64,000 nucleotides of DNA from Candidatus Binataceae bacterium (GTDB lineage: Bacteria; Desulfobacterota; Binatia; Binatales; Binataceae), in NCBI GenBank assembly GCA_035524375.1, contig DATKOZ010000035.1, forward strand, positions 135,663 through 199,662. Direction: 5' to 3'. Positions 53,479 to 62,300 of the stretch are shown one piece after another. The notes under the pieces are model-generated. The model worked only from the letters and a program-made list of their open reading frames with translations, was not told the DNA's origin and made no database searches. Each line of letters begins with the position of its first letter. Position 1 is the first letter of the stretch. A program made the translations under genes and the position numbers.

Positions 53479-53558
53479 CTACCAATGCTATCGGGTGTGA
53501 TTCAGCCGGAACAGGGCGCGAATTGACGCTGGCGCACTGGCGGCGGTAAAGATCGCTC

Positions 53559-55001: not shown

Positions 55002-55021
55002 TAATTACGCGGCCGATACCG

Positions 55022-55765
55022 TCACCGGCGGTTTAGTTTCGCAAGCGCGCTTTGCGCCGCACCGCGTACGCCGGCATCGGTGTCGGACTCAAGACATCTG
55101 TTTAAGATTCTGGCCGCTTCCGCGCCCGTCTCGTCGATCCGGGAGAGCACGGAGACGGCGGCCAGCCGCACGAATCGGTTTTCGTCCGCAAGCGCGCGCT
55201 CGATCGCCGCGATTACATCGCCGCCGCAACATCCAAGATCGCGGATGCAATAGAGCGCCATCCGGTGAACGTTAGGCTCGCCATGGCCTGCGAGCTCGAG
55301 CAGGCGGGCGCGAATCTCATCCGGATGCCGTAAGCCGAGCCGGGTGAGAAGTTCCGCCGCCGACCATCTAACGTCGCTGTCGGGATTACCCAGCGCCTCC
55401 GCGATCGCGTCCACTGCGTCAATCCCGAACGCATCGCCATCGATCCGCGAAAGAGCAAATGCCGCGCCCCATCGCATCCGGGGGCTGGGATCGCGAAGGG
55501 CCGCGCGCAACATTGCCGCCGCCCGTTCATCGCTGGCGCCGGCAATTGCGGCCAGCGCTTTCGCTGCGCCGAGCTGAACCGATTTGGCCGCGGCGCCGAC
55601 GCATCGCACCAGTGCAGCCATCACTTCATCGGAGACGCGCTCGCCGGGTGCGGCGGCAATGTTCGCGATTGCGGCGGATTGGATGCGCGGATCGGCGCCG
55701 GAAAGGCCGTCAATCAAGCGCCGGTCTGTGTCGTCTGCCGCCAAGGGGGACCTGCTATGCGGCAA
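55022..55765 (-). CDS. HEAT repeat-containing protein
   Basis: Repeated …DPSPRMRWGAAFALSRI…/…NPDSDVRWSAAELLTRLG…/…DENRFVRLAAVSVLSRI… (PBS-lyase HEAT repeats). Confidence 0.7.
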   Translation of the reverse strand: MPHSRSPLAADDTDRRLIDGLSGADPRIQSAAIANIAAAPGERVSDEVMAALVRCVGAAAKSVQLGAAKALAAIAGASDERAAAMLRAALRDPSPRMRWGAAFALSRIDGDAFGIDAVDAIAEALGNPDSDVRWSAAELLTRLGLRHPDEIRARLLELAGHGEPNVHRMALYCIRDLGCCGGDVIAAIERALADENRFVRLAAVSVLSRIDETGAEAARILNRCLESDTDAGVRGAAQSALAKLNRR

Positions 55766-55842
55766 TGCTATCGGGCGCGATCCGGCCCCGACAAGGAGCG
55801 GCTATTCGGCTGGATCGCGCTATACTTCGGCAGGGGCCGGAA

Positions 55843-56820
55843 ATGAACGCTGCGAAATGGACTCTTGCCGCCATTGCGATTGTGGGCGCAAGCATCGCGA
55901 CGCTCCAGGCCATCGCGCAGTCGGGCACAACGACCGCCTGCGTGATCGGCGAGCCGCATGGCCCGACACCGCCGCGCGCACATCCGCGTGACCTTTTTGC
56001 TGCCGAGGATACGCGGTTAACAGTAACTTCGTTGGTGCCGGTCAATCCCAATTTGCAACCAAGCAGCGTTATGCTAGTTCAGGTTGATTCAAGTGGGACT
56101 CCAATCGCCACTTTGGGCCCGATGTATGACGACGGCACTCATGGCGACGCAGTGCCCGGCGACACCCAATACACCGCCCAGCCTACCCTGAATCCGCCGG
56201 CAGCAGGCCAGATATATCTGGCTGTCCAAGCCACCTACTCCAGTACTCCGGGATGTCGCCAGTCGAAAAACAATGACTGGGACATTGTTGTCTCGAGGCC
56301 ACGGGTCCCGGTTGCACAAATAAAAGCAGAGTGGAATGCCCATCAAGCGGCAATCCAGTTCTACGAAGGCGAAAAAAAGGATGGAGTCGATCCGGACCAG
56401 GCGAAACAAGACCTGAAGACTTTTATGATGGCGAGCTACGGTCCCAACGGTACTATCTATCCCGGATTAGTAGAAAAAGTGGCTACACCTTCGTTGGGTG
56501 GAAGGCTGATAATGATTACCTTTAGCTCCGGAGGGGTATTTGGCATCGCCGATTCGCCGCCGGACTTTTTGGAAGGTACGGGGGCCTCAAAAACGTCGAA
56601 ATCGCATATTGGCAAATCACTTGAAAGGCAAGGGGTGAGTACATCTGCGCGAAAACGCAAAGCACCCATTACCTACAACAGCAACAAGCTGTCTTCCCGT
56701 AGCAAACCCGCACAGGCACCCATACTGCCACAAGCGCGCCCTCCGGTCACCCAACAAGGCGCTGGCGGCCCCAATGCCAGCCAGGAGAAGGTCAAGCAGG
56801 CCACCGAGAGCAAGCCATGA
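55843..56820 (+). CDS. Secreted hypothetical protein, duplicate copy A (Ser/Lys/Pro-rich C-terminal tail)
   Basis: Signal peptide MNAAKWTLAAIAIVGASIATLQAIAQ; conserved core …LGPMYDDGTHGD…; about 325 aa; about 88% identical to copy B. Confidence 0.6.
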   Translation: MNAAKWTLAAIAIVGASIATLQAIAQSGTTTACVIGEPHGPTPPRAHPRDLFAAEDTRLTVTSLVPVNPNLQPSSVMLVQVDSSGTPIATLGPMYDDGTHGDAVPGDTQYTAQPTLNPPAAGQIYLAVQATYSSTPGCRQSKNNDWDIVVSRPRVPVAQIKAEWNAHQAAIQFYEGEKKDGVDPDQAKQDLKTFMMASYGPNGTIYPGLVEKVATPSLGGRLIMITFSSGGVFGIADSPPDFLEGTGASKTSKSHIGKSLERQGVSTSARKRKAPITYNSNKLSSRSKPAQAPILPQARPPVTQQGAGGPNASQEKVKQATESKP

Positions 56821-56980
56821 ACCACATCGCCGTGAGAGGGCTGCAAAACAGGCGCTCGCCGGGTGCGGCGGCAATGTTCGCGATTGCGGCGGATTGGATG
56901 CGCGGATCGGCGCCGGAAAGGCCGTCAATCAAGCGCCGGTCTGTGTCGTCTGCCGCCAAGGGGGACTTGCTATGCGGCAA
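56792..56980 (-). pseudogene. Truncated duplicate of the 5' end of the HEAT-repeat gene
   Basis: Its first 42 codons (MPHSKSPLAADDTDRRLIDGLSGADPRIQSAAIANIAAAPGER) are near-identical to the start of 55022..55765, then it diverges to a stop. Confidence 0.55.
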
Positions 56981-57057
56981 TGCTATCGGGCGCGATCCGG
57001 CCCCGACAAGGAGCGGCTATTCGGCGGGGTTGCGCTATACTTCGGCAGGGGCCGGAA

Positions 57058-58035
57058 ATGAACGCCGCGAAATGGACGCTTGCCGCCATCATAATTCTGG
57101 GCGCAAGCATCGCGATGCTCCAGGCCATCGCGCAGTCGGGCACAACGACCGCCTGCGTGATCGGCGAGCCGCATGGCCCGACAGCGCCGCGCGCAAATCC
57201 ACGTGATCTTTTTGCTGCCGAGGATACGCAGTTAACGGTAACTTCGTGGGTGCCGGTCACGCCCAATTTGCAACCAAGCAGCGTTATGCTAGTTCAGGTT
57301 GATTCAAGTGGCACTCCAATCGCCACTTTGGGCCCGATGTATGACGACGGCACTCATGGCGACGCAATGCCCGGCGACACCCAATACACTGCCCAGCCTA
57401 CCCTGAATCCGCCGGCAGCAGGCCAGATATATCTGGCTGTCCAAGCCACCTACTCCGGTACGCCGGGATGTCACCAGTCGAAAAACAATGACTGGGACAT
57501 CCTTGTCGTGAATCCACGGGTCCCGGATGCGCAGTTGAAAGCAGAATGGGATGCCAGGCATAAGGCGGTCGCGTTTTACAGAGCCGAGATTAATAACGGA
57601 GTGGATCCCGATCAGGCGAAACAAGACCTGAAGACTTTTATGATGGTGAGCTACGGTCCCAACGGTACTATCTATCCCGGACTAGTGCAAAAGGTGACCC
57701 TTCCCTTGCCGGGTGGCCGGTTGGTATTGATGACCTTCAGCTCGGGGGCGATGTCGGGCATCTCTGACCCCCTGCCAGACTTTTTGGAAGGATCGGGGAG
57801 CTCAAAAGCGTCGAAATCGCACGTTGGTAAATCACTTGAAAAGCAAAGGGTGAGTACATCTGCGCGAAAACGCGAAGCACCCATTACGCACAACGACAGC
57901 AAGCCGTCTTCCCCGAGCAAACCCTCACAGGAGTCCAGATTGCCCCAAGCGCCTCCCCCGGTCACCCAACAAGCCGCTGGCGGCTCCAATGCCAGCCAGG
58001 AGAAGGTCAAGCAGGCCACCGAGAGCAAGCCATGA
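57058..58035 (+). CDS. Secreted hypothetical protein, duplicate copy B
   Basis: MNAAKWTLAAIIILGASIAMLQAIAQ…; same architecture as copy A with scattered substitutions concentrated in the C-terminal half. Confidence 0.6.
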   Translation: MNAAKWTLAAIIILGASIAMLQAIAQSGTTTACVIGEPHGPTAPRANPRDLFAAEDTQLTVTSWVPVTPNLQPSSVMLVQVDSSGTPIATLGPMYDDGTHGDAMPGDTQYTAQPTLNPPAAGQIYLAVQATYSGTPGCHQSKNNDWDILVVNPRVPDAQLKAEWDARHKAVAFYRAEINNGVDPDQAKQDLKTFMMVSYGPNGTIYPGLVQKVTLPLPGGRLVLMTFSSGAMSGISDPLPDFLEGSGSSKASKSHVGKSLEKQRVSTSARKREAPITHNDSKPSSPSKPSQESRLPQAPPPVTQQAAGGSNASQEKVKQATESKP

Positions 58036-58124
58036 ACCACATCGCCGTGAGAGGGCTGCAAAACAGGCGCTCGCCGCAATCGCGCTGCTGGGCTCGGCCA
58101 GTCCGCGCCGCGATCACGCGCCAG

Positions 58125-59225
58125 TCAACGTTCCTCGCCGAACAGGAAAATCGAGAGTGCAATCATCCCGAATGTGAAATTCGGCAGCCATGCTGCCAGC
58201 CACGGTGCGATCAGTCCTGAACGTCCAAGCGAGGAAGTCAAGCCGAGCGCCAGCCAGTACCCGAACCCAATCAAGATTGCGAGGCCGAAGCTGCGGCCCA
58301 AGCTCAGGTTGCGCGGCAGTGGATCGAGGCTTAGCGCCATCCCGAGTGCGACCATGATTAAGCATGCCAGCGGCATCGCGTATTTGAGGTCGCGATCGAC
58401 GACATAGCCGCCGGGATCGAGACCCTTGCTTCGAAGGTCGTTGATATAGCGGTCGAGGTCCCAAAGGCTGAATTCTTCCGGGTCCAGCCGGAGCATCCCG
58501 AAATCGGCGGGCGTCAGCCCGAGATTGAGATCCCCTTTGCCGGTGGCGGTCACTGTACCGCCCCGGTCCAGTTGCATTTGGGTCATCCCGGTTGGAACCC
58601 ATCCATGTCCGTCCCAAGTGGCGGTCTTTGCGCGCGCGATACTTTGGACGCCGAAGTTATTATCCAGTTGATAATGGGTTACGCCGGTCAGCCGCGCGGT
58701 CTGGTTGTTGAAGCTTCCCGCGGAAACGAAACCGTCGCGCACGCGGATGAAAATTCCCCGGCTTGCGAACACCGCCTTGAGTTCACGCTTTTTGAGTTCA
58801 ACCTCGTACAGGTATTTTGCCTGCCGTGTGGCGATTGGGACCAGCGTTTCCGCCAGCACGAAATTGAATACCGAAATCAGCGCCGCGATTATCAGGATCG
58901 GCACCGCCATATCAACCCGGCTGATGCCAAGTTGCTGGCAGGCCAGTACCTCGCCGGACCGATTCAGCAGCGCGAATCCGAGCAACACGCCAGCCAGACT
59001 CGCAACCGGCAGGAGTTGCGAGACGGTCAACGGCAGCTTGAGGGCGAAATACTCCAATCCGATCAAACCGAGCCCGCCGTACCGGATCAGGTCGTTGAAG
59101 CGATCGAACATATCGCCCAGCATGTAAGCCGCCGTGAATGCGCCCAGGCAGACCATGAATGGGCCGAAAAATTGGCCCGCTAAAAAACGGTCGATAACCG
59201 GCGAAAGGCGCGGCCGGATTGTCAT
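58125..59225 (-). CDS. lptG: LPS export ABC transporter permease LptG
   Basis: YjgP/YjgQ family 6-TM permease. Start reset to MTIRPRLSPVIDRFL (59225), overlapping the lptF stop by 4 nt. Confidence 0.8.
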   Translation of the reverse strand: MTIRPRLSPVIDRFLAGQFFGPFMVCLGAFTAAYMLGDMFDRFNDLIRYGGLGLIGLEYFALKLPLTVSQLLPVASLAGVLLGFALLNRSGEVLACQQLGISRVDMAVPILIIAALISVFNFVLAETLVPIATRQAKYLYEVELKKRELKAVFASRGIFIRVRDGFVSAGSFNNQTARLTGVTHYQLDNNFGVQSIARAKTATWDGHGWVPTGMTQMQLDRGGTVTATGKGDLNLGLTPADFGMLRLDPEEFSLWDLDRYINDLRSKGLDPGGYVVDRDLKYAMPLACLIMVALGMALSLDPLPRNLSLGRSFGLAILIGFGYWLALGLTSSLGRSGLIAPWLAAWLPNFTFGMIALSIFLFGEER

Positions 59226-60418
59226 GCCGCCTGCCTGCTGCGCTCGAAGCGCTCGATCAGATCCCAAACGAAATCGCCCGGTCCGCGGCCCTGATCGCCG
59301 CGGTCGGACGCCGCCCGCCAGAACAACCATACGGCAAGCGCGGTGAACACCAAGTCAGGGATGCTCATCGCGACGAACGCATTTAGTTTTCCCCGCTGCG
59401 CAAGAGATTCACCAACCTTCATCAGCGAGTAGTAGAGAAAAAACAATGCGACCGCGACGCCGAAGCGTTCCGAATGGCCGCCGCGCGCCGGCTTCAGTCC
59501 CAGCGACACGCCCAAGAGTGCGAACAGGAGCGTTGCGACCGGGATGGTGAACTTCCCGGCCAGTTCGGTTTCGGCCTCGTAGTCGCGGGTGTGCGATGCG
59601 CGGGCATCCGAGATGCGGCGTTTCAAAGCTACGAACGGCAATTCGCTGACATCTTCTTCGCGGAACCGCAGTACCTCATCGGACACGCTCAGATCGTAGG
59701 TTCCAAAGCGGGTGACATGAGTCGCGTCGCTTTGTGCCTCAACGCCGTACACGGCCCCGTCGAACAATCGCAGCGTAATCTGGCTGTGTTCTTCATCGGG
59801 CACCAGCAGCCCGCGCTTGCCGATGATGGTGTTCCATTGATGCGGGTCGCGTCCGTCGGTAATCATCACGCCCTTAAGCGTGCCGTCGGTCTTGGACACT
59901 TCATCCACATATATGAGCAGACCGGGGAAATTGTCATTGAAAATTTTCTCCCGCAGCCCGGCGCTCGTGCGAGTCTGGCTCAGATGGTAAAGCTCCTGGC
60001 GCATGCGTCCGTTCGCCCACGGCCGGAGCGAAAACGCAAAGTATGTCGATGCGGCATAGACCAGGAACGCGACGGCCAGAACGGGTGCGGCCAGCCGGTA
60101 CAGGCTGATACCGCACGCGCGCGCCGCGATCATTTCCTGATCGCCGGACATCCGGCCAAATCCCATCAGCACACCCAACAGCAGCGCCATCGGGAACGTC
60201 AATTCGAGGAAGGCCGGCATGATGTAGGTCATCAGTCCGACGACCTCGCTCACCGCGACACCGTGATTGACGACCATCTCGATAAGCTTGAGCATCCGCG
60301 CCGTTACCAGCGCGAACGTCAATAGCGCGACGCCGACGCCGAATGGCGCCATCACTTCGAGCGCGACGTAGCGATCGAGGATGCCGGTTCCTGGAATCTT
60401 GCCCTTCACCTTCAGCAA
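59222..60418 (-). CDS. lptF: LPS export ABC transporter permease LptF
   Basis: YjgP/YjgQ family; ILDRYVALEVMAPFGVGVALLTF N-terminus. Confidence 0.8.
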   Translation of the reverse strand: MLKVKGKIPGTGILDRYVALEVMAPFGVGVALLTFALVTARMLKLIEMVVNHGVAVSEVVGLMTYIMPAFLELTFPMALLLGVLMGFGRMSGDQEMIAARACGISLYRLAAPVLAVAFLVYAASTYFAFSLRPWANGRMRQELYHLSQTRTSAGLREKIFNDNFPGLLIYVDEVSKTDGTLKGVMITDGRDPHQWNTIIGKRGLLVPDEEHSQITLRLFDGAVYGVEAQSDATHVTRFGTYDLSVSDEVLRFREEDVSELPFVALKRRISDARASHTRDYEAETELAGKFTIPVATLLFALLGVSLGLKPARGGHSERFGVAVALFFLYYSLMKVGESLAQRGKLNAFVAMSIPDLVFTALAVWLFWRAASDRGDQGRGPGDFVWDLIERFERSRQAA

Positions 60419-60540: not shown

Positions 60541-61386
60541 ATGGATCGCTTTCGAGGCAAGGGACGTTCAACTCGATTCGCTCCGGATCGCCCGCCGCCG
60601 CGTCCACGCGAAGAGGCTGGCGCTCCGGGTGGCGATGATCGCCAACTCGTGTATGGCGCCGAGCCGATTCGCGAGTTGATCGCGGCCGCACCTGGCGCAA
60701 TCCGCGTTCTGTATGTGAAATCGGGTGAGGAGCGGCGTTTTTCCGCGGAAATCGAGCGGGTTCGCGCCAGCGCCTCCGGGTCTGGTGGCGGGCGCGTCGA
60801 GTTTCTGGATGAAGCCGCGCTGGCGCGGGTCGCCGGCCAGGCCGCGCGCCATCAGGGAATCGCGGCCCTGATGCGCGAGTATCAATATGCGAACGTCGAT
60901 GATTTTTTGAGTGAAAAGCCGGATCCGATCGTCCTGGTCGACGGCGTCACCGACCCGCGCAATTTGGGCGCGCTGATGCGTTCAGCCGAAGGCGCGGGCG
61001 CCGGCGCTATCGTGCTGGCCCGCGACCGCACGGTCGGAATCACTCCCGCCGCGGTTAAGGCGTCGGCGGGCGCATGGATTCATTTGAAAATCGCGCGATG
61101 CGGCAATGTCGCGCGTACGCTCGAGGAGTTTAAGGAGGCCGGGTATTGGATCGCGGCGCTGGCTCCCGCCGGCGATACTTCGCTCTATAACCTCGATACG
61201 ACGCGCAAGCTGGTCATCGTGGTGGGATCGGAGGACCGGGGCGTTCGAGACATCGTTCGTAAAAATGCGGACTTCGTTGTAGGAATTCCGATGCGCGGCA
61301 AGGTCGCCTCGCTCAACGTATCGGTGGCCGCGGCCGTCGCGTTGTTCGAGGTATCGCGGCAGCGGGATGCGGCGAAAAGCCGGTAA
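60541..61386 (+). CDS. rlmB: 23S rRNA (guanosine-2'-O)-methyltransferase RlmB (SpoU/TrmH family)
   Basis: SpoU_sub_bind N-terminus (LVYGAEPIRELI) and SPOUT motifs (LVDGVTDPRNLGALMRSAEGAGA; IVVGSEDRGV; IPMRGKVASLNVSVAAAV). Start uncertain (60463 or 60541). Confidence 0.8.
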   Translation: MDRFRGKGRSTRFAPDRPPPRPREEAGAPGGDDRQLVYGAEPIRELIAAAPGAIRVLYVKSGEERRFSAEIERVRASASGSGGGRVEFLDEAALARVAGQAARHQGIAALMREYQYANVDDFLSEKPDPIVLVDGVTDPRNLGALMRSAEGAGAGAIVLARDRTVGITPAAVKASAGAWIHLKIARCGNVARTLEEFKEAGYWIAALAPAGDTSLYNLDTTRKLVIVVGSEDRGVRDIVRKNADFVVGIPMRGKVASLNVSVAAAVALFEVSRQRDAAKSR

Positions 61387-61467
61387 ACGCGCGGTGCGAA
61401 TCGTTTGCCTCTCCAAATCGGCTTGACAGGATGATAGGCTCCTAATAGCTTTTTCCCTTTGCTGTTG

Positions 61468-61539
61468 GCCGATGTAGCTCAACGGTAGAGCACCTGATTT
61501 GTAATCAGTAGGTTGCGAGTTCGATTCTCGCCATCGGCT
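61468..61539 (+). tRNA. tRNA-Thr (anticodon TGT)
   Basis: Cloverleaf gccgatg/catcggc acceptor, anticodon loop tttgtaa, T-loop ttcgatt. Confidence 0.8.
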
Positions 61540-61563
61540 TTTGGTCGGCATGATGACCTTAGC

Positions 61564-61649
<86 letters not shown>

Positions 61650-61678
61650 TTGAGCGGAGCGTTTGTTTTGGAGAGAGA

Positions 61679-61754
61679 GCGGGAATAGCTCAGTTGGTAG
61701 AGCGCGAGCCTTCCAAGCTCGGGGTCGCGGGTTCGAGTCCCGTTTCCCGCTCCA
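61679..61754 (+). tRNA. tRNA-Gly (anticodon TCC), CCA encoded
   Basis: Acceptor gcgggaa/ttcccgc, anticodon loop cttccaa, T-loop ttcgagt. Confidence 0.8.
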
Positions 61755-61842
61755 GTTTTACCCGGTCCATCGGATGGACCGGAGATGACGGAACCGCCGC
61801 GAGGATGTTCCTTCGAGGATGTAAAGGGCCGGAACGATGGAT

Positions 61843-61915
<73 letters not shown>

Positions 61916-61965
61916 TTCAAAAATTTTGCGCCGGCGAATCGGCGCGGTGATATTCGAGGTCGAGT

Positions 61966-62121
61966 ATGAGAGATTTAATCGGACTTGCGTGCGACGGATG
62001 CAAACGGCGCAATTACATAACCAGCAAGAACAAAAAGAAGCAGACCGACAAGTTTGCCATTAAGAAGTTTTGCCCCAACTGCCGCACCCATACGGTGCAT
62101 CGCGAGAGCAAGATTTCTTGA
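61966..62121 (+). CDS. rpmG: 50S ribosomal protein L33
   Basis: 51-aa ORF MRDLIGLACDGCKRRNYITSKNKKKQTDKFAIKKFCPNCRTHTVHRESKIS with a C4 zinc ribbon (CDGC…CPNC). Below the 60-aa cutoff of the supplied ORF track. Confidence 0.85.
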   Translation: MRDLIGLACDGCKRRNYITSKNKKKQTDKFAIKKFCPNCRTHTVHRESKIS

Positions 62122-62223
62122 GAGGCACGGGCTTACGCGGAAAATGGGTCGCGTCCGGCCGGACTTCGGTTGGCACGCGCGAATCGTTTCGAAACGGCGC
62201 CCCTTTTGAGGAGATGATGATCA

Positions 62224-62300
62224 GGGTCAGTAGCTCTAATTGGCAGAGCATCGGACTCCAAATCCGAGGGTTGCAGGTTCGAATCCTGCCTGGCCCGCCA
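62224..62300 (+). tRNA. tRNA-Trp (anticodon CCA), CCA encoded
   Basis: Acceptor gggtcag/ctggccc (one G·U), anticodon loop ctccaaa, T-loop ttcgaat. Confidence 0.75.

Follow-up and report, generated by a model that had tools for sequence, protein, structure and literature searches.

Short-junction tandem duplications, which are mediated by microhomology and independent of RecA, have reportedly been characterised in Salmonella and Escherichia coli by Roth and colleagues. Tandem duplications in the laboratory are unstable, and their copies are identical. Concerted evolution through gene conversion is known for bacterial paralogs such as the tuf genes and the rRNA operons. Here we analyse a stretch of 64,000 nucleotides (the window) from a Candidatus Binataceae contig (DATKOZ010000035.1), in which a 1215-bp unit stands twice in tandem. 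Each copy carries a gene for a predicted secreted protein with a choice-of-anchor X domain, hereafter X (genes X_A and X_B), and the unit begins within a neighbouring gene of the HEAT-repeat family (HEAT). We conclude that the repeat is a genuine microhomology-mediated tandem duplication with later partial homogenisation. The fuller history, in which a head-to-tail segmental duplication in Candidatus Binataceae was followed by partial homogenisation between the copies and both genes were kept by purifying selection, we regard as likely.

The repeat unit and its junction

The repeat was detected by a repeat search combined with a register scan; Tandem Repeats Finder, whose longest period is 500, is blind to it. 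Base-by-base comparison at offset 1215 showed matching that begins at 55637 and ends at 56861, giving a period of exactly 1215 bp. The two units lie head to tail in the same register and abut directly, with no sequence between them (Table 1). They differ at 129 of 1215 nt (89.4% identity) with no insertion or deletion, and a third copy of the unit was found nowhere in the window. The differences are spread very unequally over the segments: 4 fall in the first 206 nt (the HEAT 5' end and the spacer), 125 in the open reading frame (ORF) of X and none in the 31-nt 3' flank.

The 10-nt sequence GCGCTCGCCG occurs three times, and its arrangement is that expected of two parental sites and one join, so we read the outer sites as parental and the middle one as the join. 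By our own arithmetic, the chance of a 10-nt match at arbitrary breakpoints is about 4^-10. As a tandem duplication, the event left both HEAT and lptG intact. The divergent spacer between HEAT and X_A was duplicated as well, and X_A and X_B therefore keep the same upstream region. Over their full 978 nt, the two X genes have no indel and no premature stop, and their products share 81% amino acid identity. NCBI names both proteins “choice-of-anchor X domain-containing protein” (from a Candidatus Binataceae metagenome-assembled genome), so the pair is already annotated in the public record.

Table 1. Features of the duplicated region (positions in the window).
Feature	Position	Strand	Description
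HEAT, intact	55022-55765	-	HEAT-repeat gene, PF13646 at 4e-29; first TTG at 55765
Duplication unit, copy 1	55637-56851		HEAT 5' end, 77-nt divergent spacer, X_A and 31-nt 3' flank; period-1215 register, no indels
GCGCTCGCCG, left	55637-55646		Left parental breakpoint, within HEAT
Divergent spacer, 77 nt	55766-55842		Between HEAT and X_A; copy at 56981-57057, 3 differences
X_A	55843-56820	+	978-nt ORF, 325 aa, secreted protein with choice-of-anchor X domain (predicted); identical to NCBI protein P0001
High-divergence block 1	56284-56397	+	Codons 148-185, first long helix; copy-2 counterpart 57499-57612
High-divergence block 2	56473-56583	+	Codons 211-247, three-strand sheet; copy-2 counterpart 57688-57798
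Identical stretch, 81 nt	56771-56851		End of unit; brackets the junction together with the first 115 nt of the unit
Duplication unit, copy 2	56852-58066		HEAT 5' fragment, spacer, X_B and 31-nt 3' flank
GCGCTCGCCG, middle	56852-56861		Novel junction, X_A 3' flank meets HEAT interior
Truncated HEAT 5' copy	56852-56980	-	43 codons from the first TTG, one R to K change
X_B	57058-58035	+	978-nt ORF, 325 aa, intact paralog; identical to NCBI protein P0002
GCGCTCGCCG, right	58067-58076		Right parental breakpoint, within the 89 nt that separate the X_B and lptG stops

Much of this had been proposed in the initial annotation of this DNA, which described a 1.2-kb tandem duplication with two secreted-protein paralogs that are diverging and a HEAT gene truncated in its second copy; the period, the abutting units, the two intact ORFs and the duplicated HEAT 5' end bear this out. 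Its boundaries (55642, 56857 and 58071) are equivalent to ours, as they place the same event 5 nt deeper in the microhomology. The microhomology itself was rightly seen at the breakpoints, and its size, given as 9 bp, is corrected here to 10 nt. The junction string said to be common to both copies is present as a 44-nt string (atgaaccaca...ggcgctcgcc) at 56817-56860 and 58032-58075, and the near identity claimed for the first ~220 bp agrees with the count above. A pseudo-HEAT fragment of 62 codons was also reported. The 62-codon ORF exists (56792-56980, minus strand), and its HEAT-derived part comprises only the first 43 codons when counted from the first TTG, or 36 when counted from the public start at 55744; the remainder is a frame that stays open to 56792, antisense to the end of X_A. 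This ORF is uncalled as a gene in the public record. For the intact HEAT, the public call (start 55744) gives 240 aa. Homology of its N-terminus to the relatives runs from residues 2-13, which indicates that the copied 129 nt are truly coding.

Divergence between the copies and its explanations

Silent divergence varies more than 10-fold along the unit, with synonymous divergence (dS) from 0.08 to 1.1. The non-coding ends of the unit differ at 4/237 sites (1.7%). At 4-fold degenerate sites, the difference is 7/81 (8.6%) over codons 1-147 and 10/23 (43%) over codons 148-185 and 211-247 taken together, with 1/10 in the intervening codons 186-210 and 0/11 in the last 25 codons. The three main classes (4/237, 7/81 and 10/23) are distinct in pairwise Fisher tests (p = 0.007, 3e-4 and 3e-9). 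Identical runs of 115, 81 and 67 nt were observed, against a mean longest run of 48 nt when the 129 differences were placed at random; in 20,000 permutations, the three runs had P values of 2e-4, 5e-5 and 0, in order of decreasing length. Because silent divergence is this uneven, we attribute the pattern to recombination between the copies (gene conversion). The initial annotation had offered gene conversion of the 5' part as one of two alternatives, and the three silent classes together with the identical runs beyond chance (P ≤ 2e-4) uphold it; the homogenised part includes the 3' end of the unit besides the 5' part. Its statement that the differences concentrate in the C-terminal half holds in part: they gather in two blocks, one at codons 148-185 and one at codons 211-247, and over its final 81 nt the unit shows no difference at all.

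We propose the following history. The ancestral state would have been a single X gene on the plus strand between the minus-strand genes lptG and HEAT, X having come into the locus in this lineage at the place where relatives have a lipoate-ligase-like gene. An illegitimate join between two 10-nt GCGCTCGCCG sites, one lying 36-43 codons into HEAT and the other 31 nt past the X stop, would then have duplicated the intervening 1215 bp; the joining mechanism that we infer is RecA-independent template switching or slippage. Such an event would yield an intact HEAT, two complete X genes with the same 77-nt spacer and an orphan HEAT 5' fragment, with no gene broken. Later homologous recombination, by gene conversion or unequal exchange and probably in several episodes, would have made both ends of the unit alike again. 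The N-terminal domain would for the most part have been homogenised too, less recently than the ends, and the two blocks in the C-terminal alpha/beta subdomain would have retained the old divergence (dS near 1).

Alternatively, the duplication could be recent (~2% divergence), the middle of one copy having later been replaced by a diverged allele from another Binataceae strain. The small divergence of the unit ends, which include the presumably neutral HEAT fragment, would fit such a history. So would the lower GC content at third codon positions (GC3) of X than of its neighbours, and the position of X as a newcomer at the locus, since foreign DNA would have entered there before. An import must nevertheless explain at least three divergence classes (1.7%, 8.6% and 43%), and the two diverged patches split by a conserved one would call for several imports. 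Furthermore, no donor-like sequence was found, nothing being closer than 59% amino acid identity, and no outgroup is nearer to one copy than to the other in any block. We therefore consider an import unlikely. An old duplication with several conversion episodes is the simplest reading, as import needs more events and an unseen donor.

Several points weigh against the history that we favour. Part of the unevenness is constraint, since amino acid conservation across the family peaks in the N-terminal domain and the second helix; this family constraint explains part of the pattern of nonsynonymous divergence (dN), but not the pattern of dS. Only the silent-site tests separate constraint from conversion, and the 4-fold sites in the blocks are few (23). 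An old duplication with conversion and a recent duplication with a diverged import are not cleanly separable. In addition, no relative with one or three copies was present in any collection searched, and we infer both the ancestral single-copy state and the copy number in the population.

The initial annotation had named diversifying evolution of the protein-coding part as the other alternative. On such a reading, positive selection would drive the C-terminal halves apart, for instance as a variable ligand-binding surface. The amino acid differences do gather in two elements of the C-terminal subdomain, its first helix and its small sheet, tandem duplication has recurred in the X family, and a pairwise average is compatible with a few positively selected sites. 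We calculated dN/dS between X_A and X_B by the NG86 and maximum likelihood (ML) methods with bootstrap intervals. The whole-gene value was 0.44 (NG86) or 0.55 (ML), with a bootstrap interval of 0.30-0.64. By region, it was 0.42 in the beta-sandwich domain (residues 31-147) and 0.31 (bootstrap 0.16-0.57) in the folded C-terminal part (residues 148-244). Block 1 gave dS 0.8 and dN/dS 0.41 by NG86, or dS 0.55 and dN/dS 0.75 by ML, and block 2 gave dS 1.1 and dN/dS 0.22 by NG86. In no region did dN/dS exceed 1, and dS rises (to 0.8-1.1) in step with dN, in a way that selection on the protein leaves unexplained. This alternative is thus not supported, and we find diversifying selection very unlikely.

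In no region is any outgroup nearer to one copy than to the other. With this symmetry and a dN/dS below 1 everywhere, neither diversifying selection nor one-sided decay is supported. Neutral decay of one copy after a redundant duplication finds some room in the disordered tail (residues 245-325; dN/dS 0.65-0.86, interval including 1), but it is highly improbable: the two ORFs have kept their whole length free of indels and stops, the outgroups are as far from one copy as from the other, and the whole-gene interval excludes 1. The last of these refutes a dN/dS of about 1 throughout, the outcome that the initial annotation had named as contradicting its reading. X_A and X_B both appear to be under purifying selection, hence they are probably functional extracytoplasmic proteins and presumably expressed.

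Substitutions between the copies show a symmetric spectrum (78 transitions, 51 transversions) without bias at A. Mutagenesis by a diversity-generating retroelement was ruled out on this ground; no search for a reverse transcriptase was made.

The source is a short-read metagenome assembly (ENA ERZ27256510) with a megahit-style contig name (k141_5046170), and we asked whether two strain alleles of a single-copy gene had been stitched in tandem, or the copy number misjudged. The type of assembly and the absence of the exact junction sequence from the other metagenome contigs (0 matches) would allow this. However, a junction that joins the X 3' flank to the HEAT interior cannot arise from an allelic bubble, and the 10-nt microhomology at which it lies is far shorter than any k-mer. 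The copies have no exact run in common beyond 115 nt, less than the k of 141 in the contig name, so the assembler could separate them. The contig is 233 kb long (233,503 bp) with normal synteny on both sides. An assembly artefact is thus very unlikely.

The X family and the history of its locus

The NCBIfam model NF041940 (choice-of-anchor X) matches the two copies at 27.8 and 28.7 bits (cut-off 25) over residues 93-113. The model spans only about 21 residues of X, with the motif MYDDGTHGD..PGD..YT. An AlphaFold (AF2) model of X, built on 18 homologs, has a confidence score (pLDDT) mostly above 85 for residues 31-244 and low confidence at 1-30 and 245-325. It predicts a beta-sandwich (31-151) and an alpha/beta subdomain (157-236) composed of two long helices (157-179 and 184-199) and a three-strand sheet (210-236). 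The tail (245-325) is rich in Lys, Ser and Pro and predicted to be disordered; it is hydrophilic to the C-terminus, without a hydrophobic end resembling the sorting signal that many choice-of-anchor X proteins have. The N-terminus has a hydrophobic helix at residues 5-25 followed by AIAQ and is signal-peptide-like. Cys138 is near-invariant across the family, and almost every member has Cys at position 33 as well; a disulfide between Cys33 and Cys138 is predicted. The leader and the near-invariant Cys138 point to an extracytoplasmic location of X.

X had no match in Pfam, and a sequence search of the PDB with the X family profile returned none either. Foldseek against the PDB matched generic Ig-like beta-sandwiches only (E ~3e-4, TM score ≤ 0.55), giving no functional lead. 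PADLOC found no defence-system match for X and generic repeat matches only for HEAT. Among the matches listed in a search of the literature on choice-of-anchor proteins, none concerned domain X or Binatota. The family is very small: a word-seeded search gave 18 clusters, in which every named member belongs to Binataceae, and a profile of residues 148-244 gave 30 representative clusters at E ≤ 1e-3 among 1.84 billion proteins.

X_A and X_B are mutual closest relatives, at 81% identity compared with ≤ 59% for anything else. In the protein and metagenome collections, nothing above 59% amino acid identity was found. Two other loci carry more than one X module: an adjacent pair of paralogs, 65% identical, lies beside a NiFe hydrogenase cluster (L005 1-1863, GCA_035541615.1), and two modules, 49% identical, are fused in one 515-aa ORF (L048 741-2288, JGI 3300080930). 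A 482-aa representative with two matches confirms the fused type. Because the partners in each case are mutual closest matches by identity, independent local duplications are suggested, and the family would thus show two further independent tandem duplications, making three independent cases among about 25 loci. Most other X loci are single copy. It is conceivable, and in our estimate improbable, that the C-terminal alpha/beta subdomain is a variable recognition module in a secreted family restricted to Binataceae, with variants made by repeated duplication and segmental recombination; if true, this would be a modest bacterial analogue of mosaic surface-protein families.

We compared the locus with 42 related genomes retrieved via lptG. 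No close strain was present in the genome collection, the best lptG identity being 76%. Eleven relatives keep a block of lptF, lptG, a conserved ORF of ~350 aa and HEAT on one strand. PNPOx comes next after HEAT in 9 of these 11, and the other two loci end within or just after HEAT. The ~350-aa ORF of one relative (L038, 11227-12285; the only copy scanned) matches Pfam PF21948 (LplA-B_cat) and PF10437, and the stop of this lipoate-protein-ligase-like gene overlaps the HEAT start. An X homolog was present at the lptG-HEAT locus in none of the 11 relatives, and an lplA-like gene was absent from the whole window. Since the 11 relatives lack X there, X would have arrived in this lineage, replacing the lplA-like gene in the opposite orientation, and would then have been duplicated. 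The GC3 of X is 59-64% against ~70% in its neighbours, and X homologs elsewhere match their flanks; the base composition thus lends mild support to a foreign origin. The contexts of the remaining X loci are unrelated, and in two cases they include adjacent hydrogenase-type genes. Because these contexts are unrelated, we draw no functional inference from the neighbourhood of X.

Promoter and terminator scans inside the unit gave nothing above background. Between X_B and lptG, which converge, and likewise between X_A and the HEAT fragment, the terminator scan found no terminator-like site; transcription of the minus strand could therefore conceivably read through, antisense to the X genes. A terminator-like hairpin lies at 55018-55032, between the convergent amidohydrolase and HEAT genes.

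Further features surround the repeat. By loss of the lplA-like gene from between lptG and HEAT, HEAT and PNPOx are separated from the lptFG operon in the window. The amidohydrolase gene (PF04909; 53559-55001, plus strand) is a lineage-specific insertion between HEAT and PNPOx, in the opposite orientation; HEAT and PNPOx are adjacent in 9 related genomes, and this insertion is laid out like that of X. The longest lptG ORF (401 aa) overlaps lptF by 109 nt (59222-59330), and the public call starts later, giving 366 aa. A tRNA cluster at 61467-62300 (Thr(TGT)-Tyr-Gly(TCC)-Thr(GGT), then Trp) lies downstream of a SpoU-type methyltransferase gene, and a long minus-strand ORF (60982-61551) that overlaps both the end of that gene and the first tRNA gene is probably spurious.

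A 13-mer, CAATGCTATCGGG, occurs within a 38-nt stretch at 53483-53520, 55763-55800 and 56978-57015, the sites being 76% similar. It is present in both of the ~80-nt divergent spacers, namely that between PNPOx (minus) and the amidohydrolase gene (plus) and that between HEAT (minus) and X (plus). There it precedes the plus-strand start codons by 76-80 nt and stands 0-5 nt from the starts on the minus strand. Read on the minus strand, it includes the -10-like hexamer TAGCAT, placed 7-8 nt ahead of the PNPOx ATG. By chance, 0.16 matches would be expected in the window, and the 13-mer was absent from the 97 loci compared. From its position and sequence, CAATGCTATCGGG may be a promoter, perhaps for a leaderless transcript.

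Comparison with known systems

The host is an uncultured soil bacterium of a poorly studied phylum, Binatota, and the proteins form a tiny orphan secreted family. The pair may be of use in teaching, or as a marker of copy-number variation among strains. It does not change what is known of duplication, gene conversion or the biology of the host, and is an ordinary case of bacterial gene-family growth.

Both X copies resemble choice-of-anchor X proteins in scoring above the NF041940 cut-off at residues 93-113. Outside the ~21 residues that the model spans, X belongs to a very small family without a Pfam model or a PDB relative. As happens in the concerted evolution of tuf genes or of rRNA operons, the alignment of the X copies alternates between long tracts of identity and diverged ones, and silent divergence along it is more than 10-fold uneven. 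In contrast to those systems, the homogenisation of X is partial, and the identical tracts reach exactly to both ends of the homology.

In structure, the X unit resembles the short-junction duplications: the copies are head to tail with no spacer, a short identical sequence (here 10 nt) stands at the parental edges and once at the join, no gene was destroyed, and one flanking gene was partly copied. Unlike its laboratory counterparts, the X unit is old enough for 10.6% divergence. The X pair is thus a good specimen of a well-known process and no new kind of element. It provides a tidy natural example that leads from a microhomology-mediated tandem duplication through to retained, partly homogenised paralogs.

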